The translations under genes were made by a program, and so were the position numbers. A stretch of DNA of 32,000 bases, taken from positions 53,093-85,092 of the forward strand of contig NC_013968.1 of assembly GCF_000025685.1 (NCBI RefSeq), given 5' to 3'. The DNA is from Haloferax volcanii DS2. Its GTDB lineage: Archaea > Halobacteriota > Halobacteria > Halobacteriales > Haloferacaceae. Shown one piece after another: positions 1-32,000 of this stretch. The stretch's first letter is position 1, and each line of letters begins with the position of its first letter. The notes beneath the pieces are model-generated. The model worked only from the letters and a program-made list of their open reading frames with translations. It was not told the DNA's origin and did no database searches.

Positions 1-39
1 AGACAGCAACTGGATTCTTCGTTAAACTAGAACGGATGG
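1..39. repeat. 39-bp repeat X, copy A (AGACAGCAACTGGATTCTTCGTTAAACTAGAACGGATGG)
   Basis: Identical base for base to 27972-28010. Its last 25 nt are also identical to 9546-9570. It may extend left of the window. Confidence 0.9.
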
Positions 40-203
40 CCGTCACGCCAGCGAACCTGTTCCAGCAGGTCCGCTGCGAGCGATTCCGAACCAAACACAT
101 CCAGCGGAATCATTCGTGTCGGACACCGCTAACGCGGTGTCCTTGCCCTCTTCGATTCCAGAGCAACAGCTGAACTCTATCAACAATCTCCTACAGAAGA
201 GCG
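40..203 (-). mobile_element. Truncated IS1595-family fragment (left terminus plus first ~25 codons of the transposase)
   Basis: It is the reverse complement of 8545-8708 of the intact element, with 5 mismatches in 164 nt by eye. It ends with the terminal CGCTCTTCTGTAGGAG and breaks off abruptly at the junction with repeat X. Confidence 0.85.
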
Positions 204-208
204 ATTGT

Positions 209-1243
209 TTATATATAGTCTACAGCCTCGGTGTGGACCCCGGGGATGTCGAAGTCTTCATATGCTCTCGGAAGTACGTATTTTCCAATACTATATCCAT
301 ATCCATATTTCACTTTTTCATCACCCCACTGGAGGCCATGTGCGTCCCAAAACCCACCAGTATATTTTCGGTCAACCAGTTCAGAAGTGGGTACTGCGAG
401 TAACGCACCACAACTAACGTTAGCGATACCAAGCCATTTCGCAGGGATTGTTAGCTTTTTCAGAGCAATGAAACAGATTGCACCACCAACAGCTCCAGAA
501 GCAGTAGTTTCAACATCGTCAGAGAATTCGACCCAGATTCCTAGATAGTTGTGTGTGTCATATACTAAACCATTACATTCACCAAACTGATACGAATAAT
601 ATCCATAATCTTTGGTAATAGTATCAAGCGTGGCTTCTGTAATAGGGTCGAGATCTGTGGCTGATGCTTTGCTCTTTGAACTGCTGGCATCGTCTGTGAA
701 CTCTACACCGTCTATTTGGAAATCTTCATCATCTAGCTCAATATCTGATGATGAAACCCGATCAGCTAGTCTCTCAGACTGCTCCGCTCCAGATGAAGTG
801 ATCTCTCCCTGTGTTGTTGGTTCAGTTTTCTCACTAATTACTTGGAGAGTACCTGTGTTAACCTCCAGAAGCTCACCTTCTTTGTCACTAACCTCTTTTC
901 TCAGCTCTTGTTCACTTTTGGTCATCTTTTGGACATTGTCATCAGACTTTTCACCATTATCACTATTTTCTTGTTTATTCTTTTCCTCTTTATTAGACTT
1001 GTGAACACCACCACTAAAATCGCGATAAAGATGCGAGACGCCAGATTCTTTCAACCGGAAAATCGCCTGAGAGTCATTTTCTGCTAACACCTCAATCTGA
1101 GGCTGGCTCTCTTTTGGAGGAGATTTGGATGTGGAGTTATTTTCCGCAGCAGCGACGGCTCCCGTAGATGCAAATGAACCGACAGCACTTCCAACTCCAA
1201 TCTTCTTGAGTATGCTTCGCCGAGTTATGTCTTTATCTGACAT
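209..1243 (-). CDS. Secreted protein of unknown function with a twin-arginine signal
   Basis: ATG at 1243; the ORF track begins at a TTG at 1255. The N-terminus MSDKDITRRSILKKIGVGSAVGSFASTGAVAAA carries the Tat motif RRSILK plus a hydrophobic region. An acidic Ser/Glu/Asp-rich linker and a Gly/Tyr/Trp-rich C-terminal domain follow. It lies in a low-GC island. Confidence 0.6.
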   Translation of the reverse strand: MSDKDITRRSILKKIGVGSAVGSFASTGAVAAAENNSTSKSPPKESQPQIEVLAENDSQAIFRLKESGVSHLYRDFSGGVHKSNKEEKNKQENSDNGEKSDDNVQKMTKSEQELRKEVSDKEGELLEVNTGTLQVISEKTEPTTQGEITSSGAEQSERLADRVSSSDIELDDEDFQIDGVEFTDDASSSKSKASATDLDPITEATLDTITKDYGYYSYQFGECNGLVYDTHNYLGIWVEFSDDVETTASGAVGGAICFIALKKLTIPAKWLGIANVSCGALLAVPTSELVDRKYTGGFWDAHGLQWGDEKVKYGYGYSIGKYVLPRAYEDFDIPGVHTEAVDYI

Positions 1244-1378
1244 ACATGATGTCAATTGAATACATACTTTATAATTCTAATTATATGATGTGAGTGAAAA
1301 AACATCAATGATAGGTCAACCAATTGAAACTTAATAGTAATTCACTAAATTGAGGCAGTAAATAATCACAGACGGCAC

Positions 1379-1640
1379 TGTCTAGTTAACAACCTCAACC
1401 GGCGTTCGATTATCTAGTGCTTGATGCGATCGTTGGAAGTTATAGTAGTAACACGAACTGTGTAAGCCACTAGGCGGCGGCAGTCCGACTGCCGACCCAC
1501 GAGTGATGGAAGCGGTCGATCCTCATTTTGAGGGTTTGAAACCACTTTTCGATGCGGGTTAGTCAACGTAGTCCAGATGACCGCTCTTCCCACGGTTTTC
1601 GCGGATACTACTGCGGTCTTACTCCTCACCAAATCGCCAG
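1379..1640 (-). pseudogene. IS6-family remnant (right terminus plus degraded 3' part of the transposase)
   Basis: It starts with GGCACTGTCTAGTTAAC, the same terminal repeat as the IS6 element at 9649-10392. The minus strand reads ...IEKWFQTLKMRIDRFHHSWVGS...*...CYYYNFQRSHQALDNRTPVEVVN*, with internal stops and frame changes. Confidence 0.75.
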
Positions 1641-1681
1641 ATATGAAGACTATTTCAACAGAGACACGTAGACATAAATAT

Positions 1682-2041
1682 CTAAACCATCATCTTCAAT
1701 AAACTAATTATTAGCAAAGTGCCGAGGAAAGAGTATCCGATAACTCCAACAACACCCGGATATGATTGAAATGATAGAAGAAAGAAAATTGTGAAGATAA
1801 TTGCCAGAATACTAACAAAGTATTTAGGATTTTTCCCACTTTCAATTGGATAATATGAAAAAATGATGGCAATCGCCACACCAATAGCAACATATATGAT
1901 TTCAAATTTCAGAATTGAAAAATCAGAATATGTAAAAACAACGACGGAAAGCGCAATAAGACCACAGATTGGCGCTAGTAAACTGATGTGATCTTCAATC
2001 CATATTTTCAATTTTGCAGATTCATTCATCATATTTGACAC
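1682..2041 (-). CDS. Small multi-pass membrane protein, unknown function
   Basis: 119-aa ORF with 3-4 hydrophobic segments (LIALSVVVFTY, IIYVAIGVAIAIIF, FVSILAIIFTIFFLL, GTLLIISLL). AT-rich codon usage matches the surrounding island. Confidence 0.5.
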   Translation of the reverse strand: MSNMMNESAKLKIWIEDHISLLAPICGLIALSVVVFTYSDFSILKFEIIYVAIGVAIAIIFSYYPIESGKNPKYFVSILAIIFTIFFLLSFQSYPGVVGVIGYSFLGTLLIISLLKMMV

Positions 2042-2099
2042 TATTTGATGGTGAACGATATAAATCTGTGGGCTAAAACCCTATATTAGCAGGTCGTCT

Positions 2100-2170
2100 C
2101 AGTACCTCACAAAGCCGCTTAATTAGACGTCTGCTTGTTGAGAATGTACTCAAACACAGTAGCAGCAGTA
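2100..2170 (+). mobile_element. ISH3-family terminal fragment
   Basis: CAGTACCTCACAAAGCCGCTTAATTAGACGTCTGCTTGTTGAGAATGT aligns with the reverse complement of the right end of the ISH3 copy (17083-17130: CAGTACATCACAAAGCCGGTTAGTTGAGACGTCTGCTTGCTGAAGATGT). Similarity fades after ~70 nt. Confidence 0.7.
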
Positions 2171-2247
2171 ACTGAATAAATTGCCTGGCGTGCCACTGGT
2201 TAGTGAACAAAGTTGTCACGTGCAACAGTCACCCGTGAAATCGGGTC

Positions 2248-2751
2248 CTACTGATACGGAGGAGATGGGAAGAAACTAATCTTTGAATCCCCCTCATAGT
2301 CACAATCATACCCATCGGTCGGAACGACATAGTAGATAATGTCTTGAGCAGGATAGTTCAGCAATTTACCTTCTGAATCGTAGGTCTCGAAGTAGGTTAC
2401 ACGCTTGTCGACGATTCGAAACAAGTCGCCGCTACCCTCTGTAAACGGGGCAGTTCTGCAGATATCTTCGTTCATAACCAGCGCTCCGAACGAGACTAAA
2501 TCGCCTTTTGACGCTGTGGCTACAGGCCCCTTGACTGTTCGACTTTCAAGTACCTCTCCCGTCGTATGGTGGACCAGAAGGAGGCCAGTATGTCTCAGCT
2601 CGCGGTTCGATTGTACTGGCACGCTATCCGTTCGTTCTCCCATGTCTCTTGCCCCTACGAGAAGCATAAACTCCGCTGCTTCTATCAAAAGTAGAGGTAT
2701 TCGTGGACTCTGCTGCTGTTCTGCGCTAAAATTTGTGAACCCGGTGTGCAC
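2248..2751 (-). CDS. Hypothetical protein
   Basis: 167-aa ORF with an acidic C-terminus. The antisense ORF 2405-2911 is Ser/Arg-rich and less plausible. The start is uncertain: GTG at 2751, first ATG at 2667. I recognise no motif. Confidence 0.35.
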   Translation of the reverse strand: MHTGFTNFSAEQQQSPRIPLLLIEAAEFMLLVGARDMGERTDSVPVQSNRELRHTGLLLVHHTTGEVLESRTVKGPVATASKGDLVSFGALVMNEDICRTAPFTEGSGDLFRIVDKRVTYFETYDSEGKLLNYPAQDIIYYVVPTDGYDCDYEGDSKISFFPSPPYQ

Positions 2752-2806
2752 GACGATCTCAGAAAGTCTTCAGACACACCTCGACCACTCAATGGGAGAT
2801 ACACTG

Positions 2807-3019
2807 TCACTCCAACTCACGGCGTCCGCACTTGTGCCAACCCTTCTCTTCGGTGTAGTGCAGCGTATGCTCGACGTCACCGATACGGATGAACAGATGA
2901 TCTTCTCCTAGCGGTGGGTTCTCATTAGTTGTTACAGAATCGAAGCCCCCGGATGTTTGGAGTTCATTGAGTTCGTCCACTCTGAGGGGCCGGTCAGGTA
3001 GTTTGTCTTGTATCGCCAT
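2807..3019 (-). CDS. Hypothetical small protein
   Basis: 70-aa ATG-initiated ORF with acidic composition, upstream of and co-oriented with 2248-2751. Confidence 0.35.
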   Translation of the reverse strand: MAIQDKLPDRPLRVDELNELQTSGGFDSVTTNENPPLGEDHLFIRIGDVEHTLHYTEEKGWHKCGRRELE

Positions 3020-3142: not shown

Positions 3143-3243
3143 GAACGTTGGAAACGCGGTATTTAGTCAGTCATCAGATCGGTTGGCGTGTAGCGCATCT
3201 ACAGGCCCGCTACTGCTGATTAAACGTTGGAAATGAGGGGTTG
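3143..3243 (+). promoter_or_regulatory. Two ORB-like boxes in the orc1 upstream region
   Basis: GAACGTTGGAAACGCGGT (3143-3160) and AAACGTTGGAAATGAGGGGTTG (3222-3243) resemble the box GAACGTCGGAAACGTGGGGTG at 4776-4796. The second box overlaps the TTG at 3241, which argues for the ATG at 3277 as the true orc1 start. Confidence 0.45.
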
Positions 3244-3276
3244 TCTTTATTACCTTCCCGTGAGGACGTGACAGAC

Positions 3277-4524
3277 ATGGACGACGAGAGTGGGGACGTT
3301 GCCGCGGAGATTTTCGGCAAGCCGGACCCAATATTCGAGCAGAAGTCCCTCGTCGACGTCGACCACGTCCCACAGCCTGAACGCATCGTCGGTCGCGACG
3401 ACGAGATTCGCGCGCTCTCGATGCAACTCCGGTCAGCTATCGACGGTGGGTCACCGGAGAACGTGGTCATCTACGGCGAGACTGGGACGGGCAAGAGCCT
3501 CGTCGCGAAGCACGTCTCGAAGGTGGCCGAGAGCATGGCCGAAGACGTCCGGATCGGGACGGCGTATATCGACTGTAGCGACGACGACACAGAGACGCAA
3601 GCTGTGTCTCACATCGCACGGAAGCTGAATAACGAGGACCAAACCGGTGTCTCGGTCCCGGAGATGGGTCTATCGAAAAGTGTCTACTACACGCGACTCT
3701 ACTCTATTCTCGACGAACTCTACGATGTCGCACTCATCATCCTCGACGAAGCCGATATGCAAGCGGACGATGGTCTGCTGATGTCGCTGTCGAGGTCACG
3801 TGAGACGGGGAAAACGGACTGCCGCGTCGGTGTCATCGCTATTTCCAACAAGGTGCGGTGGGCGGAGAACCTCAACGACCGCGTGAAGTCATCACTTCAG
3901 CCCAGAGAGCTCAATTTCCATTCCTACGATGCGAACCAGCTTCGGTCAATTCTCGAACACCGGCGTGATGCGTTCCGGGGCGGTGTCCTCGAGGACGGCG
4001 TGATACAGTTGAGCGCCGCCCTCGCCGCACAGGACCACGGCGACGCCAGACAGGCCATCGATATCCTCCGGAACGCGGGGATGCTCGCACAGCAACAAGA
4101 TAGTGAGACAGTCACCGAGAAACACGTTCGCGGGGCTCGTCGGGAGGCCGAAAAGGACCGGTTCCACGACCTTATCGGTGGGTTGACAATCCAGAAGAAG
4201 ACCACGCTTGCGGCTGTCACGACCCTTCACAAGCAGACTGGGCGCGACGAGTTCCCAACCGGCGAGATCTACACGGCCTACACCAACCTGTGTCAGGTGA
4301 TCGGCGTCGAACCGCGGACCGAACGTCGGGTTCGGGATTTCGTCCGTAACTTGGCGTTTCTCGACGTACTCGACGCTCGAAAAGAGAACCAAGGACGTGC
4401 AGGTGGTATCACCATCTACGCCGGCCTGCAGCCCGCGCACGACCTCGAGATTGTCCACGAAATCGCGATGACAGACGACCGGTTTGCTGATGTTGACGAC
4501 TCCGAGACAACCGTCTCGAAATAG
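3277..4524 (+). CDS. orc1: Orc1/Cdc6 AAA+ replication initiator
   Basis: Walker A GETGTGKS, Walker B IILDEAD, sensor region DARQAIDILRNAG and a C-terminal winged-helix-like region, in the typical Orc1/Cdc6 layout. The ATG at 3277 is preferred over the TTG at 3241. Confidence 0.93.
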   Translation: MDDESGDVAAEIFGKPDPIFEQKSLVDVDHVPQPERIVGRDDEIRALSMQLRSAIDGGSPENVVIYGETGTGKSLVAKHVSKVAESMAEDVRIGTAYIDCSDDDTETQAVSHIARKLNNEDQTGVSVPEMGLSKSVYYTRLYSILDELYDVALIILDEADMQADDGLLMSLSRSRETGKTDCRVGVIAISNKVRWAENLNDRVKSSLQPRELNFHSYDANQLRSILEHRRDAFRGGVLEDGVIQLSAALAAQDHGDARQAIDILRNAGMLAQQQDSETVTEKHVRGARREAEKDRFHDLIGGLTIQKKTTLAAVTTLHKQTGRDEFPTGEIYTAYTNLCQVIGVEPRTERRVRDFVRNLAFLDVLDARKENQGRAGGITIYAGLQPAHDLEIVHEIAMTDDRFADVDDSETTVSK

Positions 4525-8544: not shown

Positions 8545-9545
8545 CGCTCTTCTGTAGGAGATTGTTGATAGAGTTCAGCTGTTGCTCTGGAATCGAAGAG
8601 GGCAAGGGCACCGCGCTAGCGGTGTCCGACACGAATGATTCCGCTGGATGTGTTTGGCTCGGAATCGCTCGCAGCGGACCTGCTCCAACAGGTTCGCTGG
8701 CGTGACGGCGTCGAATGCCCCCGCTGCCGTTCTGACCGGACGGTCAGAAACGGCAGCTATGGGGCGTTTCAACGCTATCTCTGTAAGAATTGTGACCGCA
8801 CGTTCAACGACAAGACGGGCACAATTTTCGCTCACTCGAAGGTTGCGCTCCGCAAGTGGTTGTTCTCGATTTACGCGTTCTTGCGGTTCAACACGAGTCT
8901 TCGCCAACTTCAGCGAGAGATTGGTGTGACCTACAAGACGATGCATCGTCGCGTCGAGCGCTTCACCAGAGCGCTCGACGCGCCTCGCCTCGACCTCGTT
9001 GGACCAGTCGAAATCGACGAAGTGTACGTCTCTGCCGGGTTGAAAGGCCGCGAGCGCGACTCTTGGTCGCGCTCGCGTGGCCTGTCCACGCGCGGGCGAG
9101 GTTCGTACGAGGGAGACAAACCACCGGTCTTCACCATCGTTGACCGTGGAACGGGACAGCGGTACGCCGTCCCAGCGAAATCCGCTGACGAATCGACCGT
9201 GCGACTCCTGCTGGCTGACCACAAGGAGGAGTCGCTGACCATCTACACTGACGGATTTCGGGCATACGACCCACTTGAGGACGACAACGAATTCACCCGC
9301 GAATACGTCGTCCACGGTGACGGCGAGTACGCTGATGGAGACGTTCACGTCAACAGCTGCGAGAGCCACGCGTCGCTGGCGCGACGGTGGCTCTCGCCGC
9401 ATCGAGGCGTCTCGAAGGACAAGTTGACACAGTATCTTCGCGCCTTCCAGTTACGTAGCGAACTCTTCAGAAAACCCGGTCGAGAAGCACTCAAACACGC
9501 TGTCAAAGCAACTCTCTGAAATCAACAATGTGCTACACATGAGCG
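8545..9545 (+). mobile_element. IS1595-family insertion sequence (1001 bp), apparently intact but with no target duplication
   Basis: Left end CGCTCTTCTGTAGGAGATTGTTGATAG. Right end reverse complement CGCTCATGTGTAGCACATTGTTGATTT. The flanks TGGTAGAA and TTCTTCGT differ. Confidence 0.85.
8635..9519 (+). CDS. IS1595-family transposase (intact)
   Basis: 294 aa. N-terminal zinc finger CPRCRS...CKNCDRTF, a DDE-type core (EIDEVYV ... IYTDGFRAYD ... VHVNSCESHASLARRWL) and the same architecture as the split copy at 6125-7103. Confidence 0.9.
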   Translation: MIPLDVFGSESLAADLLQQVRWRDGVECPRCRSDRTVRNGSYGAFQRYLCKNCDRTFNDKTGTIFAHSKVALRKWLFSIYAFLRFNTSLRQLQREIGVTYKTMHRRVERFTRALDAPRLDLVGPVEIDEVYVSAGLKGRERDSWSRSRGLSTRGRGSYEGDKPPVFTIVDRGTGQRYAVPAKSADESTVRLLLADHKEESLTIYTDGFRAYDPLEDDNEFTREYVVHGDGEYADGDVHVNSCESHASLARRWLSPHRGVSKDKLTQYLRAFQLRSELFRKPGREALKHAVKATL

Positions 9546-12183: not shown

Positions 12184-13114
12184 TGCTCTGTTGAATAGCG
12201 ATCTATTCAGCCGATATCACAGGTTTAGAAGGATGAAGCCGAGGAATTCGATTCTTGCCTATGGAAATCGATCTCCTCGACTTCGTTGAGCAGTGTCGTC
12301 ACCTAGCTAAACAAGCGTTGGGGAAGCACGCGGGCGAGCCCGCCAGCGGCGGGTTCGCCCGCTGGGTCCACGTCGTTCTGCACTGCTTTCGGCTCGAAGA
12401 AGGCCACAGCTACCGTGAAACGCCGAATCGGCTGAAGTATATCGCCGAGGTTCGTGACGCACTCGGTTTAGATCGGGACGAGCTGCCGGACTACAGCACG
12501 ATCTACAAATCGTTCGACCGGCTGAAAATGTGGGTCTGGCGGGCGCTGCTGCGCGTTTCTGCGCAGCAGCACCCGCAGTCTGGCCACGCCGCTCTCGACA
12601 GCACGTTCTTCGACCGTCGCCGTGCGTCGTCGTACTTCCGCCAGCGGTCGGGAAGCACCGTACAGACGCTGAAAGTGACGACATTAACTGATGTGGAGTC
12701 GCTTGCGGTTCTTGACGTTCACATCACAGCACGGTGGAAGCATGATACGAAGACCGGACCGCAGGTCGTCCGCCGAAACGCGGACGACCTGCAGTCGGTC
12801 GCCGCCGACAACGGCTTCCAAGACTGGCACACCGAGTACGAGATCGCTGCATATGACGTTGAGTACCTCGTTCACTACCGTGGATCATCACCGAAAGCAG
12901 CTCTGAACAACGCGCTCAACCGGGCAAACGGCTACTCACAGCGCTGGATGGCCGAAACCTCGTACTCGACAGCCAAGCGCTCGCTCGGCGACGCCGTGCG
13001 AGCGCTCGGCTGGTATCGGCAGTTCCGTGAAATTGTCTTGATGTTCGCCATCATCAACATAGAATCGCTGTGTGAGCCGCTGTAACCGTGATTCAGCATC
13101 TATTCAACAGAGCA
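12184..13114 (+). mobile_element. IS5-like (ISH1-type?) insertion sequence (931 bp) with an 8-bp target duplication
   Basis: Perfect 15-bp terminal repeats TGCTCTGTTGAATAG. GAAGCTGC is duplicated at 12176-12183 and 13115-13122. The family assignment is from memory of transposase style only. Confidence 0.75.
12261..13085 (+). CDS. DDE transposase of the IS5-like element
   Basis: The ORF fills the element. It shows motifs such as LDSTFF, VAADNGFQDW and RWMAETSYSTAKRSLGDAVRA. ATG at 12261; the track starts at the TTG at 12255. Confidence 0.8.
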   Translation: MEIDLLDFVEQCRHLAKQALGKHAGEPASGGFARWVHVVLHCFRLEEGHSYRETPNRLKYIAEVRDALGLDRDELPDYSTIYKSFDRLKMWVWRALLRVSAQQHPQSGHAALDSTFFDRRRASSYFRQRSGSTVQTLKVTTLTDVESLAVLDVHITARWKHDTKTGPQVVRRNADDLQSVAADNGFQDWHTEYEIAAYDVEYLVHYRGSSPKAALNNALNRANGYSQRWMAETSYSTAKRSLGDAVRALGWYRQFREIVLMFAIINIESLCEPL

Positions 13115-14355: not shown

Positions 14356-15654
14356 TTAAGCTCTAACCTCCGTTCTGAATGCTTCAGCTACTCGTTCGCT
14401 GAGTAAGAGGCGTGATTTCTCTGGTTGGCGTGCGTTGCAAAACATGAGCTCAGCCAAGTTCGGCGGTGGATGTCCGAACGACTGGGCTAGATCTTCGAGG
14501 ATGAGCTGGGCGAAAGACCGGAAGGTCTTCGCCCAGCGTTCTCGTGGAAACATCGTTTCTGGGTGCATCCTCTGAAAGACGCCAAGCAAGGCTCTGCTGA
14601 CCGTGAGCGTCAGCAGAGCCGCTACCACCAGCAACTCCACGATTGCTGGATTGCTTGTCTGGAACTTCTCCAGCCCGTACATCGATTTCAGCTCACGGAA
14701 CAGCACTTCTACTTCCCACCGTACACCGTACAACGCTGCGACTTGTTCCGGCGTGAACTCATCTGGGAGGTTCGTGATGTACAGGTGATAGTCGTCGGTG
14801 TCCTCGTTGCGGACACCGACGACGCGGAACTCCATCGTCGCACTCGAATGCTTCTCACCGTACGGACGCCGTTTGAAGCTCACCTCGGCGGTTACATCGA
14901 TAATCTCGCGTGTAAGACCACCGAGAACATCCTGAAGACGACGGTCTGGTAAGGAAATGGCGCGCCCGCGCCATTTCCGACGTGCCTCTGTGATTCGTGG
15001 GTTTGCGTTCGTCTTCAGTCGACTCAAAAAGAAGCCGCCGTTCTCCTCGATGAGTGCGAACCGACGATAGCTGTAGAAGCCGAGATCGAACAGCAACAAC
15101 CGCCCTCGCAGCCAGTTCCCCGTGCGGAACTGGCTGCTCTCGTGGCTTCGTTCGTCGGTGAGTTCGAACCGCTCGATCGTCTGTTTCGTGAGGTTGTGGA
15201 CGAGATGAAGTTTCGCGCCTGATTGGTCAGGATGCGTCGCTGGAAACTCGCTCAGGAGCCGATGCAACCGGAAAACGGTTGCATCGGCAATCATCACATC
15301 GCGGAACTGCTGGAGCTGCGGGGCGAGTGTGTGTGGCACTGCGACCTCCTCGAGCATGCTCTCGAGGAGGTCGCTGAGTAACTGTCCGAGTGCGGGTGTG
15401 AACCGATCGTAGAAGCTGGAACGGGAGAGCGTCTGATTGGTCGCTGCGGCGTACGCACGTTGAAACCCCGCGATCGTGCGAGATTCGCCGCCGACGGCGA
15501 ATCCCAAGATGAGCGTCCAAACGAGGGCAGTAACATCGATTCGACGGTGGCGTTGGACGACATCGCGCTCGCGCGCGATGTCTTCGATAAGCTCTCCTGG
15601 AAAGAGCGAAGTGAGCCGCCGTTGAATAAGGTCTGGGGAGAGTTCCTTCAGCAC
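14356..15654 (-). CDS. IS4-family DDE transposase
   Basis: 432-aa intact ORF filling the element (DATVFRL..., LLLFDLGFYSY..., YGVRWEVEVLFRELKS). Confidence 0.9.
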   Translation of the reverse strand: MLKELSPDLIQRRLTSLFPGELIEDIARERDVVQRHRRIDVTALVWTLILGFAVGGESRTIAGFQRAYAAATNQTLSRSSFYDRFTPALGQLLSDLLESMLEEVAVPHTLAPQLQQFRDVMIADATVFRLHRLLSEFPATHPDQSGAKLHLVHNLTKQTIERFELTDERSHESSQFRTGNWLRGRLLLFDLGFYSYRRFALIEENGGFFLSRLKTNANPRITEARRKWRGRAISLPDRRLQDVLGGLTREIIDVTAEVSFKRRPYGEKHSSATMEFRVVGVRNEDTDDYHLYITNLPDEFTPEQVAALYGVRWEVEVLFRELKSMYGLEKFQTSNPAIVELLVVAALLTLTVSRALLGVFQRMHPETMFPRERWAKTFRSFAQLILEDLAQSFGHPPPNLAELMFCNARQPEKSRLLLSERVAEAFRTEVRA

Positions 15655-26690: not shown

Positions 26691-27844
26691 TAGTGCCTAG
26701 CGTAACTTTTGAAGATAGTTACCGAGGTGATTGTCAATCCAAGAAGCTGCGAAGCTCAGCTTGGTAGTGAGTTGCTCAAAGAGCCTGGTGAGGAGAGCGC
26801 GGTATTCTGCCGCGCTCTCCACAATCAGCGGCGAGGCTTCCCATTTAAGGCTCTTCCAGACCTGTTCGATTGGATTGAGATCGGGCGAGCCAACTGGGAG
26901 AAACACCAGATCAATCCCAAGTTGGTGTGCTCGCTTGCGCGTGTACTCACACACGTGCGACGAGAAGTTGTCCAACACGAGCAGAATCCGGCCGCCCGGA
27001 TTCTGCTCGCGGACTCCTTCGAGACATTCGCAAATCCGCTCTTTCTCTTGAGTGCTCGGAAACTGCAGCACACTCTCACCGGAGACCGCATAGAACCCGA
27101 CCGCTGGTTCGTCTAACTTCACCAGCGGTCGGGTGATGTGCGGATCATCCACGGTGTAGAGCCGCTGTGAGTTATCCCACGGTTGTGGATGAGATGTGTC
27201 GAGAAATCCAAGGACGGTCCCACCGTCCGTTCGGATTTCTTCGTCAACAACCCAGCCTTCGTCGTCATCTCCATCGCGTTTGTTGTGTGGCTCACCAGAC
27301 TCCTCGTCGAACGCGTCGGCGACGCGTTCGTCGAGAATCTCTTCGGCGTTTTCAGGCCGTGATGGACGCTTAGTCCGCGGAATTGCGTAGGAGAGACCGA
27401 GCTTTTCGAGGAAGGTACTCAGGTAGACCGGATGAAATTCGACGTCGAATTCTTGCTTGATAAGATGCTGTATTTCTTGTTTCTTCCAGGGCTGACCCTC
27501 ACGGAGAAGTTCCAAGAGATGCTGTTGTTGTTTTTCGTCGAGCTTCGGGGGCCTGCCGCCCCCGAAGTTCGGCATCAGAAGGCCGAGACCGCCTTTGTTC
27601 CATCGGCGTGCCCACCGAGTACCAGTAGCGGAGGACCTGCCGACGTCGTCGGCAGCGTCCTCCAAAGTTGCGCCCTTGTAAACTCGTTTGATGAAGATAA
27701 GCCGCTCAGTGAGTTTCTGGTCAGTAGACTCCATAAGGAGTCGGTCGAGATCGTCCTCACTGAGGTGACGGACGATCTCTTTGCGGCGATCTCCAGACAT
27801 ACTCACACATCAGATTCCAGCTTCATAACTTCCCCTAAGCACTA
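26691..27844 (-). mobile_element. IS630-family insertion sequence, complete copy C (~1.15 kb)
   Basis: Imperfect terminal repeats TAGTGCCTAGCG (left) and TAGTGCTTAGGG (reverse complement of the right end), each starting with TA. Confidence 0.8.
26697..27806 (-). CDS. IS630-family transposase (intact)
   Basis: 369 aa. It has an N-terminal HTH pair and a DDE core with DNFSSH ... NPIEQVW, typical of IS630/Tc1-type enzymes. Confidence 0.9.
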   Translation of the reverse strand: MSMSGDRRKEIVRHLSEDDLDRLLMESTDQKLTERLIFIKRVYKGATLEDAADDVGRSSATGTRWARRWNKGGLGLLMPNFGGGRPPKLDEKQQQHLLELLREGQPWKKQEIQHLIKQEFDVEFHPVYLSTFLEKLGLSYAIPRTKRPSRPENAEEILDERVADAFDEESGEPHNKRDGDDDEGWVVDEEIRTDGGTVLGFLDTSHPQPWDNSQRLYTVDDPHITRPLVKLDEPAVGFYAVSGESVLQFPSTQEKERICECLEGVREQNPGGRILLVLDNFSSHVCEYTRKRAHQLGIDLVFLPVGSPDLNPIEQVWKSLKWEASPLIVESAAEYRALLTRLFEQLTTKLSFAASWIDNHLGNYLQKLR

Positions 27845-27971
27845 CGCTCGCGCAACTCATCAGAGGGAAACGCTCTTTGAATCCGGTCAACTATGACCGA
27901 ATCCGGTGGGCTGTAGGTCATACTTCCCACCGGGTTCCTCAATCAGGTAGTTGCGACGATATCAAATCAAC

Positions 27972-28010
27972 AGACAGCAACTGGATTCTTCGTTAAACTA
28001 GAACGGATGG
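27972..28010. repeat. 39-bp repeat X, copy C
   Basis: Identical to 1-39, in the same orientation, 27971 bp away. Confidence 0.9.
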
Positions 28011-28178
28011 TTGTGGCACATTTGATTTTATCAACGACGCATTTCACGATGGGTTCACGAAGTTCTCGGTAGTTTCAACAAGGCAAGCAACAGCATTTGC
28101 TTTTTTGTCGTCCGGTTGGTGTCAAAGCTGTCTCTCGCAACGGTCGTCAAGGTCGAGAAATAAGTGAGTGGCGAACAC

Positions 28179-28733
28179 CTACTCGTCGATCATCTCGCGG
28201 AGACGTATCGTACGTTCGTTCAGCGTCTCCAACGCTTGAGAATGACCCTCAACTTCAGACTCTAACGCTGACGTTCTATCTTCCAAACTTGAAAGCCGGG
28301 ACACCACCTCATCAAGGTCCTCAACAACCATTGATAGCTGGTCCCCACCGTCGCTGTCCTGCTCGTCTGCGAGGTCGTCAACGCGGTCGTGCAGATGGCT
28401 GAGCGCCGTCGACAAGTCCGACACCTCGTGCCGTAGGTCAGCCACATCCCCCTCGGAAACGCCAACTCGTACTTCGGTCTGGTCGTCGAGGTCACGAGCG
28501 ACGCGCTCACCTTCGGCGGTCAGCGCATACACGTTCGCAGGAATCGGAGCGCCGACGTCCTCCTCACCCACCTTCTCAATCAGCCCCATCTCCGCCAGCG
28601 ACCGCGCCTGTTTGCCGAGGTTCGAGGTCGTCATCTCACCTATCGATCTCTTGATATTAGATGTATTTCCCCGCCCACCACGCTCGTCGAGAGCCGACAG
28701 AATTTCCCGCTGAGTTTCGTTCAACTGCTCCAT
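28179..28733 (-). CDS. Winged-helix DNA-binding protein with a long C-terminal coiled coil
   Basis: The ATG at 28733 is preferred over the GTG at 28754. The N-terminus is MarR/TrmB-like wHTH: LNETQREILSALDERGGRGNTSNIKRSIGEMTTSNLGKQARSLAEMGLIEKV. The C-terminal ~90 aa are a heptad-like acidic coiled coil (VADLRHEVSDLSTALSHLHDRVDDL... LEDRTSALESEVEGHSQALETLNERTIRLREMI). Confidence 0.7.
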   Translation of the reverse strand: MEQLNETQREILSALDERGGRGNTSNIKRSIGEMTTSNLGKQARSLAEMGLIEKVGEEDVGAPIPANVYALTAEGERVARDLDDQTEVRVGVSEGDVADLRHEVSDLSTALSHLHDRVDDLADEQDSDGGDQLSMVVEDLDEVVSRLSSLEDRTSALESEVEGHSQALETLNERTIRLREMIDE

Positions 28734-28789
28734 ATCCAACACGAAACACGCCACCTACAAAATCATATTCCCTATGGAACGCCTTACGG

Positions 28790-29340
28790 AACAAGCGGCG
28801 CGAGGAAACAATGGCCTATGCGAACCAAACCACGCCAAGCGGCGACCGGAGGGGCAGGCAGGCCGAGCGTACGAGAACGACCAGAGAGCGAGCGACGACG
28901 AGAGGCGACACCAGTCACATCACAAAACAGAGAAGACACCCGATAGAGCGACGATAAAGACACCGGGGGGAACGTCACGAACCCCCCGGCAGTGACGCGG
29001 TCAGCGTCACCATGACACCGGGCACGGCGACGAGACTGGGACGTCGCAATGAGGGGAGAAACAGCAGCCACGGCAGAAGCGACCACGTCGAAAACGACAC
29101 AGGACCGTGGCGGCGAAAGGAGTGACGACCAGGACAACGCCAGCGGCGACCGAAAAGTGAGCGAAACGCGACCAGAACTCTGAGCCCGCGAACAGCGACC
29201 AATGGCGACCACGTGACGAGCGACGACGACGACGGTGACGGGGGCGACCGTGATAGAGAACTCCGTCGACGACGATTTACAAAACGAACCAGCGGCCGAC
29301 ACCCTACGACAGTAACGACGTCGAGAGCTAACGTGGCGCC
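28790..29340. other. Strongly T-depleted (plus strand) non-coding tract
   Basis: By my count there are 37 T in 28801-29340 (540 nt, about 7%). GCGACC, GACGAC and GAGCGA motifs recur. A GC hairpin CCGGGGGG-11 nt-CCCCCCGG lies at 28963-28989. ORFs appear in many frames on both strands but none looks like a haloarchaeal protein. Confidence 0.7.
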
Positions 29341-29745
29341 ACAGAATGAGTGTGGACTGTGGTTCCGACGGCGGAACCCCAAGAGAAACGAGAGCGAAAC
29401 AGCGGTCCAGATGTTGGAGGCAATGACCGTGGGGACACCGGCCTGCAAATGCGAGGACGAGTATCCGGTGGTGGTGAGCGAGCAGCGACGAGAACTGGCC
29501 TCACAGCGCCGCCAGTCATCTTCCGAGACGTGAACAAAGATGGGCCTGCCAGCAATGCAAACGTACCTGAGTGCAACTGTGAGCGATGGCGAGTGAACTC
29601 CCGGCCTATCGACGCCGATATCTCGAGTTCGATGACGATCCCGATGCCGGAGAGGCGAAGACGGGGACTGCAGAAGCGACGCCCCAATTGGACATATACG
29701 CTCACATATATGTCCACATATACGTTGACGGTGAACGCGAAACGT

Positions 29746-29765
29746 GAGACGAGACGAGACGAGAC
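29746..29765 (+). repeat. (GAGAC)x4 pentanucleotide microsatellite
   Basis: GAGACGAGACGAGACGAGAC read directly. The palindrome GGACATATA-8 nt-TATATGTCC lies just upstream at 29690-29715. Confidence 0.85.
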
Positions 29766-29924
29766 GTGGAACCCCAGCTGTACGCCTCAACCATCAAGAC
29801 TGCTGGTGACGATGGCCGGTGAACTCCCGCTCCGAGGGAGCGAGCGGATATCCCAAGCGAGCGACTGAGCGCGGTGCGGTGTTTCTGACGACGAGGCCAG
29901 GCCTCCATGTGCTGCTTGTCGAAC

Positions 29925-30053
29925 TGGTGGGTGTCCGTGTGAGCGATGCCCGCGTGGTGTCTGGCCTGTCGACGACCGTCTGGTGTCCGTGTGAGCGATG
30001 CCCGCGTGGTGTCCGGCCTGTCGACGACCGTCTGGTGTCCGACCTGTCGATGG
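29925..30053 (+). repeat. Tandem direct repeat (56 + 52 + partial 21 bp) with a 26-bp sub-periodicity
   Basis: Unit 29981-30032 (TGGTGTCCGTGTGAGCGATGCCCGCGTGGTGTCCGGCCTGTCGACGACCGTC) repeats 29925-29980 with one substitution and a 4-nt insertion. (T/G)GGTGTC recurs at 29929, 29955, 29981, 30007 and 30033. Confidence 0.9.
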
Positions 30054-30227
30054 CAGGTTCAGAGTTCAACGTGCGGTGCTGTTGCGTACGGCAGTCGCTT
30101 TGGGGGTTCGCGCCGACTCGCACCAGTATCGGTCGGTTTGGCGAGTTTTGAACCGAATACGTCGCATATACACATTCGTATATCCGGGGTAAGTGGCCGC
30201 TGTCGTCAAAAAGGAGCGGTTAGAGGG

Positions 30228-30572
30228 CTATTCGCGCAGTTCGGTGACTCCGCCGTCGAACTCGTCGAGCGTGACCCACGACTTGCCGCGCCGGAGTTGC
30301 GTCAGGATGGTCGTCGTACCGTGGCCGTCGGCCATGAAGTGAGCCTGCTCGTCAGGGATGTGGACACGGAGGACGTAGTCGTTCCGGGGCGAGAGGCCGT
30401 TCGGTTCGTCGATGCGTCGGACGGTTCCGAGGACGGGGAAGCCGTCGCGGAACGCGCCGCCGCCTTCGACCATGTGAATGACGACCTCGTCGCCCGTGTC
30501 GGCGGGGGCGGCCTCGTGCGCTCGGTAGGCGCTCGGGTGTCGAGTCGGGTCGGGGTAGTCGCCCGCCATCAT
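30228..30572 (-). CDS. Hypothetical protein (operon gene 3)
   Basis: 114-aa acidic ORF. Its ATG overlaps the upstream stop (ATGA at 30569-30572). No motif recognised. Confidence 0.6.
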   Translation of the reverse strand: MMAGDYPDPTRHPSAYRAHEAAPADTGDEVVIHMVEGGGAFRDGFPVLGTVRRIDEPNGLSPRNDYVLRVHIPDEQAHFMADGHGTTTILTQLRRGKSWVTLDEFDGGVTELRE

Positions 30573-30763
30573 GCGTCACCTCCGACGTCGACGACAGGGT
30601 GGTCACGGGCGACTCGTGGCCCCTCGCGACAGCTGGCGCACCGCATCTGCGGGTAGTTCTTCCCGTCGCCGTCCTCGCTGACGTCGACCCACACTTTCAC
30701 GAGGTCGTCGCGTTCATCACCGCACGCATCGCATCGGCCCTGACGGTAGGGTGCGTCGCTCAT
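30569..30763 (-). CDS. Small zinc-ribbon protein (operon gene 2)
   Basis: MSDAPYRQGRCDACGDERDDLVKVWVDVSEDGDGKNYPQMRCASCREG has two CxxC pairs. The ATG at 30763 overlaps the stop of gene 1 (ATGA). The Arg-rich upstream extension to 30928 in the track is overprinted on gene 1 and is rejected. Confidence 0.6.
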   Translation of the reverse strand: MSDAPYRQGRCDACGDERDDLVKVWVDVSEDGDGKNYPQMRCASCREGPRVARDHPVVDVGGDA

Positions 30764-31200
30764 CGGTCCACCTCCGCAACGCTGACGCCGACCATCTCTG
30801 CGACGGCGCACATCTGCCCGAACAGGTCTTCGCTCGCGTCGCACGTCGCGTTGGCGTGGACGACCATCTCGGTGGCAATCTCGTCGTGAAGGTCGAACAC
30901 GTCGCGAGCGCCGCGTTGTCCCGCGCACTTCGCCGTCGCGACGTGGGCGACGATGAGGCGAGCGGCGAGATCAACACCGAGCGCAAAGTCGGTCGTGGTC
31001 GCGAGTCCCGCCGCATTCAGGGCACAGCGTTCGTGGTCGACGCGGGTGCGAAGCGTCTTGAACGCGCGATGCTCGTTGTGCGTGAGGTCGTCGGCGTGCA
31101 GCGAGAGGAACTCATCGACTGCGTGGAGGTGGTCGGTGAGGTCGTTCCGTTCTTCGCCGTGCAGTACGACGTGAGTCGAGCCGCTGTTGTCTGCTACCAT
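30760..31200 (-). CDS. Hypothetical His/Asp-rich protein (operon gene 1)
   Basis: 146 aa from the ATG at 31200; the track starts at the GTG at 31203. It is acidic and His-rich (HVVLHGEERNDLTDHLHAVDEFLSLHADDLTHNEH). No motif recognised. Confidence 0.6.
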   Translation of the reverse strand: MVADNSGSTHVVLHGEERNDLTDHLHAVDEFLSLHADDLTHNEHRAFKTLRTRVDHERCALNAAGLATTTDFALGVDLAARLIVAHVATAKCAGQRGARDVFDLHDEIATEMVVHANATCDASEDLFGQMCAVAEMVGVSVAEVDR

Positions 31201-31354
31201 CACGTCTACTACTTACATCCCCACACACTTAGTAATAACGCCATAGCGTAATTAGAGACGACAGATACAGTCGTTCTGCCGAACAGCGCACCAAAGACGC
31301 CACTCGTGAGGTCGGTAGAACGGTGCTGTTGACTCGCCTGCTCGGTTAATAACT

Positions 31355-31487
31355 CAGACACCACCGTGTCGAGTGTGTCGTGTGGTGGGGGAGTCGTGTC
31401 GAGTGGATGAGTCGATTGTCGTGGAAACCGCATGACGGCAGTCGGATTGGACGAACACCAACACACACACACCGCGTGTCGAGTGGC
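31355..31487 (-). repeat. Left arm: three copies of GTGTCGAGTG (the inverted orientation of the right-arm repeat)
   Basis: GTGTCGAGTG at 31366-31375, 31396-31405 and 31476-31485. The first copy sits in ACACCACCGTGTCGAGTGTGTCG, the reverse complement of the right-arm unit. A (CA)n run at 31459-31472 precedes the innermost copy. Confidence 0.8.
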
Positions 31488-31645
31488 TAGGGGGAAAACG
31501 GGGTCGGGGGTCTGACGAGAGTCTATATATCAGCAATACCTTTACATGACAGTAGATATAACAGTAACCGTACTGGGAACAAAACACGTATAATTACGGT
31601 TGTTGTAGTAGTGAATTATTAACAACCGAGCTTCCGCGTCGCGTG
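31488..31645. other. AT-rich core between the inverted repeat arrays (candidate unwinding element)
   Basis: 43 G+C in 31511-31630 (about 36%) against roughly 60% in the flanks. An 8-bp inverted repeat CGGTTGTT / AACAACCG is at 31597-31604 and 31621-31628. Confidence 0.55.
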
Positions 31646-32000
31646 GTTGACCCGACCCACTCGACATACGGTGTGTGTGTGTCCATTCCGACCGTGATTC
31701 CAACACTGTCTTGCGATCTTCACCTTTTTTCTGCCGACCCACTCGACACACCACCCGTGCCACTCGACACACTCGTCACGGCAGTCCCCTGCACTCGACG
31801 CACTCGACACGGTGGTGTGTCCATTCGACGCACTCGACACGGTGGTGTTCCCCTGCACTCGTCACACCCGACATGGTGGTGTCCTCACTCGACGCACTCG
31901 ACACGGTGGTGTAGGTATTCGACACACTCGACATGAGGGTGTCCACTTGACGCACTCGACACGGGGGACCGCCCACTAGACACACTCGACACGATGGTGT
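31646..32000 (+). repeat. Right arm: array of CACTCGAC(A/G)-type repeats, with at least 7 tandem ~30-35 bp units, truncated by the window end
   Basis: Exact CACTCGACAC at 31740, 31761, 31801, 31831, 31896, 31953 and 31983. CACTCGACAT variants at 31648 and 31926. CACTCGACG half-sites at 31792 and 31887. The unit consensus from 31792 onward is about C(A)CTCGACGCACTCGACACGGTGGTGT. Confidence 0.85.

Follow-up and report, generated by a model that had tools for sequence, protein, structure and literature searches.

What keeps half a kilobase of DNA almost free of one base on one strand, next to the gene for a predicted DNA-binding protein on a haloarchaeal replicon? The question is raised by a 32,000-nucleotide stretch of Haloferax volcanii DS2 (NC_013968.1, positions 53,093 to 85,092), here called the window and numbered from its first letter. 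Within it, a gap separates a minus-strand gene for a winged helix-turn-helix (wHTH) protein with a coiled coil from an operon of three genes, and a preliminary description of the gap had pointed to a tract with 37 T in 540 nt, or ~7% T. These figures match our count exactly (A168 C160 G175 T37 in 28801-29340). We conclude that the tract is a real, unusual and narrowly distributed feature of uncertain function, and comparison among relatives places it, along with the wHTH gene, in a portable module of 1.94 kb. Our favoured reading, to which we assign a probability of only about 0.3, is that the tract serves as a DNA-level cis spacer, constrained in its composition, within a regulatory or maintenance region that belongs to the wHTH protein and is bracketed by operators. 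Coordinates of all features of the module are collected in Table 1.

The depletion is singular among the sequences that we scanned. The tract has the lowest 540-nt count for any base across the window (the runner-up count is 70), and neither the window nor the complete plasmid pHGLR3 of H. gibbonsii LR2-5 (65 kb) has another 300-nt stretch in which any base falls to 10% or less. Its AT skew in 500-nt windows reaches 0.67-0.71, compared with a mean of -0.02 (s.d. 0.127, maximum 0.40) in ~125 kb of haloarchaeal background and a maximum of 0.59 in 1.03 Mb of unrelated viral contigs; the latter had given only chance matches in a 15-mer scan and were reused as a composition background. Nothing else in these four sequence sets comes up to the tract, in agreement with the earlier remark that such asymmetry is unusual. 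The GC skew is near zero with G about equal to C, so that the skew is purely one of A over T. Along the gap, the AT skew runs from +0.64 in the tract through +0.28 in the middle to -0.44 in a set of iterons, and the gap is thus bipartite with opposite polarity at its two ends.

The gap is non-coding. The range of GC content by codon phase is 0.03-0.13 in 28810-29350, as against 0.3-0.45 in the genes to either side. At 29053, 29377 and 29529, 1-nt indels set apart copies with 95% identity, and each long open reading frame (ORF) is interrupted in at least one copy, differently in pHGLR3 and in a metagenome contig. Ten candidate ORFs of the gap gave no Pfam match, and a phmmer search with the most coding-like of them (29213-29533) against 1.8 billion representatives returned only itself and one low-complexity protein. 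The homologous 1.5-kb gap of pHGLR3 contains zero genes in the PLSDB gene table, although this table is incomplete. The flat codon phase, the frameshifting indels and the lack of Pfam matches uphold the earlier view that no credible gene lies here. The accompanying argument, that every stop codon on either strand requires a T on the plus strand, is also correct: with stops nearly absent from six frames, gene callers invent ORFs in such tracts.

Some of the observations would nevertheless fit a gene, genuine or recently decayed, whose product is hydrophilic and disordered. T-free codons specify only K, N, T, R, S, Q, H, P, E, D, A and G, which is exactly the alphabet of disordered proteins; gene callers did call ORFs, such as P0030 (106 aa) and a 111-aa ORF in the distant relative L003; and the ratio of nonsynonymous to synonymous differences (pN/pS) is 0.45 for two plus-strand ORFs and, from few events, 0.23 for 29213-29533. 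We regard such a gene as highly improbable, because codon-phase periodicity is absent from the tracts of both the window and L003, 1-nt indels shift the frame between copies with 95% identity, the ORFs are interrupted at different places from copy to copy, the predicted products are very basic and unlike haloarchaeal proteins, and neither a Pfam match nor a protein family among the 1.8 billion representatives was found. Nor is there a detectable remnant of the DUF7344 partner gene that accompanies the chromosomal relatives of the wHTH gene. Outside the T-poor tract, 29350-29530 has a mild coding-like periodicity of GC at the third codon position, and a possible micro-ORF of ~40 codons (MLEAMTVGTPACKCEDEYPVVV...) lies in this stretch at 29413-29533 on the plus strand; its C-terminus differs in pHGLR3.

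With which of its neighbours, then, does the tract belong? A block at 28165-30104, comprising the wHTH gene and ~1.35 kb of non-coding DNA, is 92-95% identical among five Haloferax copies: the window, pHGLR3 (L001), another H. volcanii contig (L002), Haloferax sp. Q22 (L004) and the metagenome contig (L005). The block starts a few bases past the stop codon of the wHTH gene and ends just past a conserved 12-mer. BLAST and protein-guided searches matched only close relatives, and pHGLR3 was the sole match in phage and plasmid collections. The left flanks differ in all five copies, and the right flank of L002 and L004 differs from that of the window, homology stopping at 30104 (the L005 contig ends inside the gap). 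Neither origin-like repeats nor an orc gene is found beside the block in the available flanks of L002 and L004 or of L003. Because the block recurs with different flanks, the tract belongs with the wHTH gene and not with the origin of the origin recognition complex (ORC) type or with the three-gene operon. The preliminary description had offered, as one of two possibilities, a cis element linked to the neighbouring repeat-flanked AT-rich core, which is that of the origin at ~31.5 kb; such a link is not supported, since the block ends at 30104 and travels without the origin in L002, L004 and L003. In pHGLR3, a plasmid whose natural loss occurs often enough to be measured, the tract is located at 61.8 kb, ~33 kb away from a ParA gene at 28.2-29.0 kb. 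A gene resembling those for type IV secretion system (T4SS) coupling proteins stands beside the wHTH gene in pHGLR3 and L005 and is absent in the window, L002, L004 and L003.

More distant relatives provided the main argument for a function. A profile search retrieved a few diverged plasmid-type wHTH proteins, including those of L003 (40% identical) and L006 (33% identical). On a single strand of L003, a ParA gene, a DUF8115 gene, ~1 kb without codon periodicity and the wHTH gene follow each other in this order. About 700 nt of this ~1 kb are poor in A on the strand that is sense for wHTH, which matches the polarity seen in the window, with an AT skew of -0.42 over 500 nt, a magnitude just beyond the background maximum of 0.40, and the skew switches sign in the distal part as it does in the window. 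The tract is upstream of the wHTH start codon, at a distance of 68 nt in the window and ~70-80 nt in L003. The two tracts could not be aligned by nhmmer, and a search with the whole gap against L003 and the background gave only sub-threshold matches, one of which led to conserved distal blocks. In L003 these blocks keep their order and orientation: the exact 12-mer, an iteron core CCGTCTG(G)TGTCCGGCC in which CCGTCTGGTGTCCGGCC of the window's iterons is recognisable, and a direct-repeat-like GATGGC..ACTCCCG; the AT-rich core is absent. The distal 12-mer is exact in pHGLR3, L002, L004 and the distant L003, with the same relative position and orientation. In L006, the 200 nt available upstream of the wHTH gene before the contig end are also A-poor. 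The more distant chromosomal relatives of the wHTH gene are each divergent from a DUF7344 gene, with only a short intergenic region between the two, and lack the tract, indicating that only the plasmid clade carries it. Where the sequence has diverged, composition, polarity and position have been retained, and the strand asymmetry noted earlier is real, with its polarity conserved in a relative whose wHTH protein is 40% identical. In L003, the ParA (CbiA) gene and the gene for a 138-aa acidic DUF8115 protein, at 61-1313, lie directly upstream of the module, and this pair resembles the HpaAB partition pair of pHV3 (bioRxiv 10.1101/2025.11.19.689047).

The same comparisons bear on the possibility that the tract is neutral, cryptically simple DNA, produced by slippage of T-less motifs (GAC, GCGAC, GAGCGA, GAGAC) and hitch-hiking beside the wHTH gene. 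Several observations would suit slippage: the tract contains (GAC)6 with a 3-nt indel, CGA indels of 3 nt occur among the copies, and a copy-variable (GAGAC)n lies nearby. The words GCGACC (7), GACGAC (6) and GAGCGA (5), of which the tract had been described as full, are indeed present; GCGAC/CGAC words are over-represented, GCGAC occurring 12 times in one orientation where shuffles that preserve dinucleotides predict 3.5 (z=5); and GACGA, ACGAC and CGACG are enriched in both the window and L003 tracts. The divergence of the tract also equals neighbouring synonymous divergence. However, Tandem Repeats Finder (TRF) detected no array in the tract besides (GAC)6, leaving ~95% of it without a detectable repeat. 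The T count is stable at 32-37 per copy in the five copies, and T gains (~5) are about as frequent as losses (~4), without decay towards A=T, although these events are too few to polarise. A lineage too diverged to align shows the same polarity, position and skew switch, and no comparable tract exists in 1.15 Mb of background. We consider a neutral origin rather unlikely. Two short motifs were examined as candidates and rejected. GCGAC is not a conserved binding motif, its sites varying as much as the spacer, and the enrichment of TGACG/GTSAC among the remaining T's (4 seen against ~1.4 expected by a rough estimate) is probably explained by dinucleotide bias, these words lying outside the top k-mers relative to dinucleotide-preserving shuffles.

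Sequence divergence in itself does not speak for selection. The tract differs by 4.3% between the window and pHGLR3, while synonymous divergence (pS) is 0.17 in the wHTH gene and 0.036-0.047 in the right-hand operon, so that divergence in the tract is about a quarter of that at synonymous sites of the wHTH gene. Purifying selection, suggested by this contrast with the synonymous divergence (dS) of the wHTH gene (Fisher p=1.5e-6), was rejected as its explanation in favour of recombination mosaicism. Between L002 and L004, the tract is 99% identical and the wHTH gene 92%. With this mismatch and an operon pS of only ~0.04, the slow divergence of the tract is no evidence of constraint. The wHTH dS is ~0.2 between copies whose flanks differ by 1-5%, with the exception of L004/L005, which points to old wHTH alleles that recombination has shuffled, the breakpoint lying at the promoter. 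Among the substitutions within the tract, 25 are plus-strand A/G, equivalent to C/U in a minus-sense RNA, and 8 are C/T.

What could the constant partner of the tract do with it? The wHTH protein (WP_193494225.1), annotated in pHGLR3 as 'chromosome segregation protein', has weak Pfam matches to HxlR/HTH_27 and to coiled coils, and its gene has a pN/pS of 0.15-0.25. The AlphaFold model (predicted local distance difference test score 83) consists of a winged helix and two long helices, and the structural neighbours of the model in the PDB are of the PadR/MarR/HxlR type, with AspA at rank 49. Two similar palindromes, O1 over the putative wHTH promoter and O2 upstream of it, bracket the T-poor tract with their centres ~595 bp apart; the O2 pattern is expected 0.27 times per 32 kb. 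On the favoured reading of a DNA-level spacer, wHTH dimers would bind O1 at their own promoter, O2 ~595 bp upstream and probably the distal repeats, and the coiled coils would bridge or coat the DNA in between. The A>T asymmetry would be a constraint on composition and not on sequence. Depletion of T would make TATA-like boxes and ATG very rare on both strands of the spacer, and stops very rare in its six frames, would remove oligo-T terminators for plus-sense transcription, and, by its asymmetry, would fix the orientation of the spacer relative to the wHTH gene. That the protein binds this DNA and loops or coats it, and why T is depleted, is inferred. A DNA-level role is favoured by the linkage to the wHTH gene, by the palindromes on either side of the tract, by the many repeats in the distal half of the gap and by the DNA-binding fold with its long helices, and it is also supported by the lack of tandem repeats other than (GAC)6, RNA-family matches and coding signals in the tract.

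Several points weigh against this spacer. No repeated binding motif is conserved within the tract, O1 and O2 were found post hoc, and L003 has a different palindrome, located only at its promoter. Avoidance of transcription and translation signals alone requires no enrichment of A. Moreover, the tract diverges as much as the synonymous sites of the neighbouring operon.

Could the tract act as RNA instead? The preliminary description had offered a structured RNA as one explanation, which our analyses do not support. A cmscan of 27500-32000 against Rfam at E<=1 gave no match, a tRNA/tmRNA scan found none, fold z-scores against shuffles were -1.04 for the plus strand and -1.21 for the minus strand, and alifold on only five sequences, at least 95% identical to each other, revealed no compensatory pair on either strand. 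The GC hairpin reported at 28963-28989 is present, and a second one follows directly (Table 1). Substitutions in the hairpin stems are plus-strand G-to-A in three of three cases, which keeps a G:U pair only in minus-sense RNA (n=3, a weak signal). The published transcriptome and ribosome-profiling (Ribo-seq) work on H. gibbonsii LR2-5 is silent on the region (PMC12542753; bioRxiv 10.64898/2026.09.13.751334).

A broader alternative is that the tract acts through transcription, regulating or insulating wHTH expression, either by a wHTH-sense long non-coding RNA or leader, A-poor and U-rich, which would arise by read-through from upstream genes or from the AT-rich repeat core, or by an antisense U-poor RNA immune to oligo-U terminators. 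This alternative, doubtful but to be taken seriously, draws on the polarity relative to the wHTH gene, conserved in L003 and L006, and on the upstream genes, which in three of three independent contexts are co-directional with the wHTH gene and end just before the distal block. It also draws on the plus strand of 28800-30140, which contains no T run longer than TTT. Predicted minus-strand pairs are kept by ~22 substitutions and broken by 11, compared with 7 and 17 for the plus strand, but this asymmetry is expected from G:U chemistry alone. By direct reading, no convincing TFB-recognition element (BRE) or TATA box is aimed into the tract, and the wHTH gene appears to have its own proximal promoter, suggesting a leaderless mRNA. 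The fold energies no better than shuffles, the lack of covariation and the lack of Rfam matches also speak against it.

The distal half of the gap introduces yet another explanation. Here, 20-nt direct repeats enclose AT-rich 12-mers, and iterons follow. The pair of 20-nt repeats described earlier is present (Table 1). Five plus-strand RATGGC hexamers occur in the gap (28810, 29201, 29585, 29811, 30049), spaced by 391, 384, 226 and 238 nt, where ~1 would be expected, an observation made post hoc and of uncertain significance. The tract could be part of an element for replication or transfer whose activity rests on the composition of its strands, by R-loop priming, as an ORC-independent iteron origin or as a leading region like that of an origin of transfer (oriT). 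T-poor strands, the plus strand on the left and the minus strand on the right, would converge on the AT-rich repeat core and form hyper-stable RNA:DNA hybrids. Such an element would explain the opposite bipartite skew around the AT-rich 12-mers with their direct repeats and iterons, the conservation of the skew switch in L003, the T4SS coupling-protein-like gene beside the wHTH gene in pHGLR3 and L005, and the recurrence of CGGTGCTGTTG and ACGGCAGTCG of the distal block beside the ORC origin. Among 500-nt segments of the window and of pHGLR3, hybrid formation would also be most favoured for a plus-sense RNA of the tract (z=-3.3, calculated with nearest-neighbour parameters), but this outlier is modest (-0.156 against -0.12 for the next best) and there is almost no GC skew. 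The module has no identified Rep or relaxase gene, both the window and pHGLR3 have a canonical orc origin with origin recognition boxes (ORB) 1.3 kb away, the AT-rich core is absent in L003, and no promoter is known. Taken together, we judge a replication or transfer element to be unlikely. Still less do we expect that strand composition itself encodes the function, in the form of an element for the replication or transfer of a family of Haloferax plasmids that depends on R-loops or on helicase polarity, such as an ORC-independent initiation site or an oriT-like leading region, with the wHTH protein as its dedicated factor; this stronger proposal is very unlikely.

How does the module compare with known systems? 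In layout it resembles centromere cassettes and operator loops and in asymmetry R-loop regions, and it differs from each in defining features. Like the plasmid centromeres F sopC, R1 parC and that of pNOB8 AspA, it is a portable non-coding region of several hundred bp beside the gene for a small DNA-binding protein with a palindrome at the promoter; pNOB8 AspA spreads from a palindrome. Unlike these centromeres, the tract has no array of repeated binding sites, the iterons lying outside it, and adjacency to ParA is found in L003 (parA and DUF8115) and not in the window or pHGLR3. We know of no centromere that is defined by depletion of a single base on one strand. With the R-loop regions of ColE1 RNA II, the mitochondrial conserved sequence block (CSB) and the immunoglobulin switch, the tract has in common a strong asymmetry over hundreds of bp near replication functions, and its purine-rich, U-poor RNA would hybridise unusually stably; R-loop regions are G-rich with a GC skew, whereas the tract has G about equal to C, an A>T skew, and no known promoter or RNase H-type processing site. 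The iterons, direct repeats, AT-rich core and motifs in common with the ORC origin make the distal half of the gap similar to iteron/ORB origins of haloarchaea, but the tract itself lacks inverted ORB-like repeats, an AT-rich unwinding element and orc1/cdc6. Finally, the wHTH protein, the palindrome over its own promoter and the similar second palindrome upstream recall loops of PadR/MarR-type autoregulators, from which the module differs by the ~595 bp operator spacing, the composition-extreme spacer and the long coiled coil. To our knowledge, no such operator architecture has been described for the PadR/MarR families.

Table 1. Features of the wHTH module and its right border in window coordinates (nt).
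Feature	Position	Strand	Basis or remark
wHTH and coiled-coil gene, 184 aa	28179-28733	-	ORF; constant partner of the tract
Promoter/operator region of the wHTH gene (putative promoter)	28755-28800		direct sequence reading
TATA-like TTTTGTAG	complement of 28755-28762	-	invariant in 5 copies
Palindrome O1, TTCCCTATGGAAC	28768-28780		direct reading; GTTCC-N4-GGAAC in L002
T-depleted tract	28801-29340	+	6.9% T, 31% A, AT skew +0.64, 64% purine on plus strand; non-coding
Two adjacent GC-rich hairpins in the tract	28963-28989 (CCGGGGGG-N11-CCCCCCGG) and 28992-29010		direct reading, folding
Sole T-rich spot of the tract, GATTTACAAAAC	29274-29285	minus reads GTTTTGTAAATC	TTTTGTA common with wHTH promoter box; TTTTGT present in 5/5 copies
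Palindrome O2, GTTCC-GACGGC-GGAAC (GTTCC-N6-GGAAC)	29362-29377		in 5/5 copies
Central repeat region	29584-29829	+	direct repeats around AT-rich 12-mers and microsatellite
20-nt direct repeats	29584-29603, 29810-29829	+	90% identity
Three AT-rich 12-mers, CACATATACGNN	29692-29729	+	between direct repeats; TRF
(GAGAC)n microsatellite	29746-29766	+	copy number differs among five copies, indels 5-15 nt
Five 26-nt iterons, each opening GGTGTC(C/T)G	29930-30059	+	A-poor, AT skew -0.44, opposite to tract
Distal conserved block: TGCGGTGCTGTT, then ACGGCAGTCGC at 30072-30098	30072-30104	+	module end
Terminator-like hairpin with T5 run on minus strand (putative terminator)	30197-30219	-	directly past the stop of the 114-aa gene; belongs to the operon, not the module

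The replicon around the module is strongly mosaic. Four transposase genes are found in the window, at 8635-9519, 12255-13085, 14356-15654 and 26697-27806 (IS1595-like, two DDE_Tnp_1 and IS630/DDE_3), the last of which abuts the left end of the module. On the other side, the three-gene operon (30228-31203, minus strand; 147, 65 and 114 aa) stands between the module and the ORC-type origin. Its products have no Pfam or NCBIfam match, the 65-aa product carries a CxxC...CxxC zinc-ribbon-like pattern, and we take the position of the operon to recall the origin-associated oapABC clusters of haloarchaea. The origin itself, at 31358-32000 (and at 1-1324 in pHGLR3, L010), comprises inverted CACTCGACAC(GGTGGTGT)-like arrays around an AT-rich core at ~31500-31640, and in pHGLR3 orc1/cdc6 is the first gene, next to this origin. 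CGGTGCTGTTG and ACGGCAGTCG are both found in two directly oriented copies, one pair where the module ends distally (30074-30097) and the other beside the origin (31321-31444); these pairs flank the operon and may be the scar of a recombination event or a site bound in both places. A second orc1/cdc6 gene at 3241-4524 (plus strand) lies beside an AT-rich region at 1-3000 (38-49% GC), and the two probably mark another replication origin on the replicon.

What would the tract mean for haloarchaeal plasmids? In the literature we found no half-kilobase single-base-depleted element described in them. If the tract were neutral low-complexity DNA, it would be a mere curiosity. Recognising such tracts prevents spurious ORF annotations such as P0030 and the 111-aa ORF of L003. 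If base depletion on one strand is itself functional, it would represent an undescribed type of cis element, and it would offer a handle on the regulation, maintenance and replication of small haloarchaeal plasmid modules, about whose centromeres and control regions little is known. The family of wHTH/coiled-coil proteins, at present labelled uninformatively as 'chromosome segregation protein', gains a candidate DNA partner.

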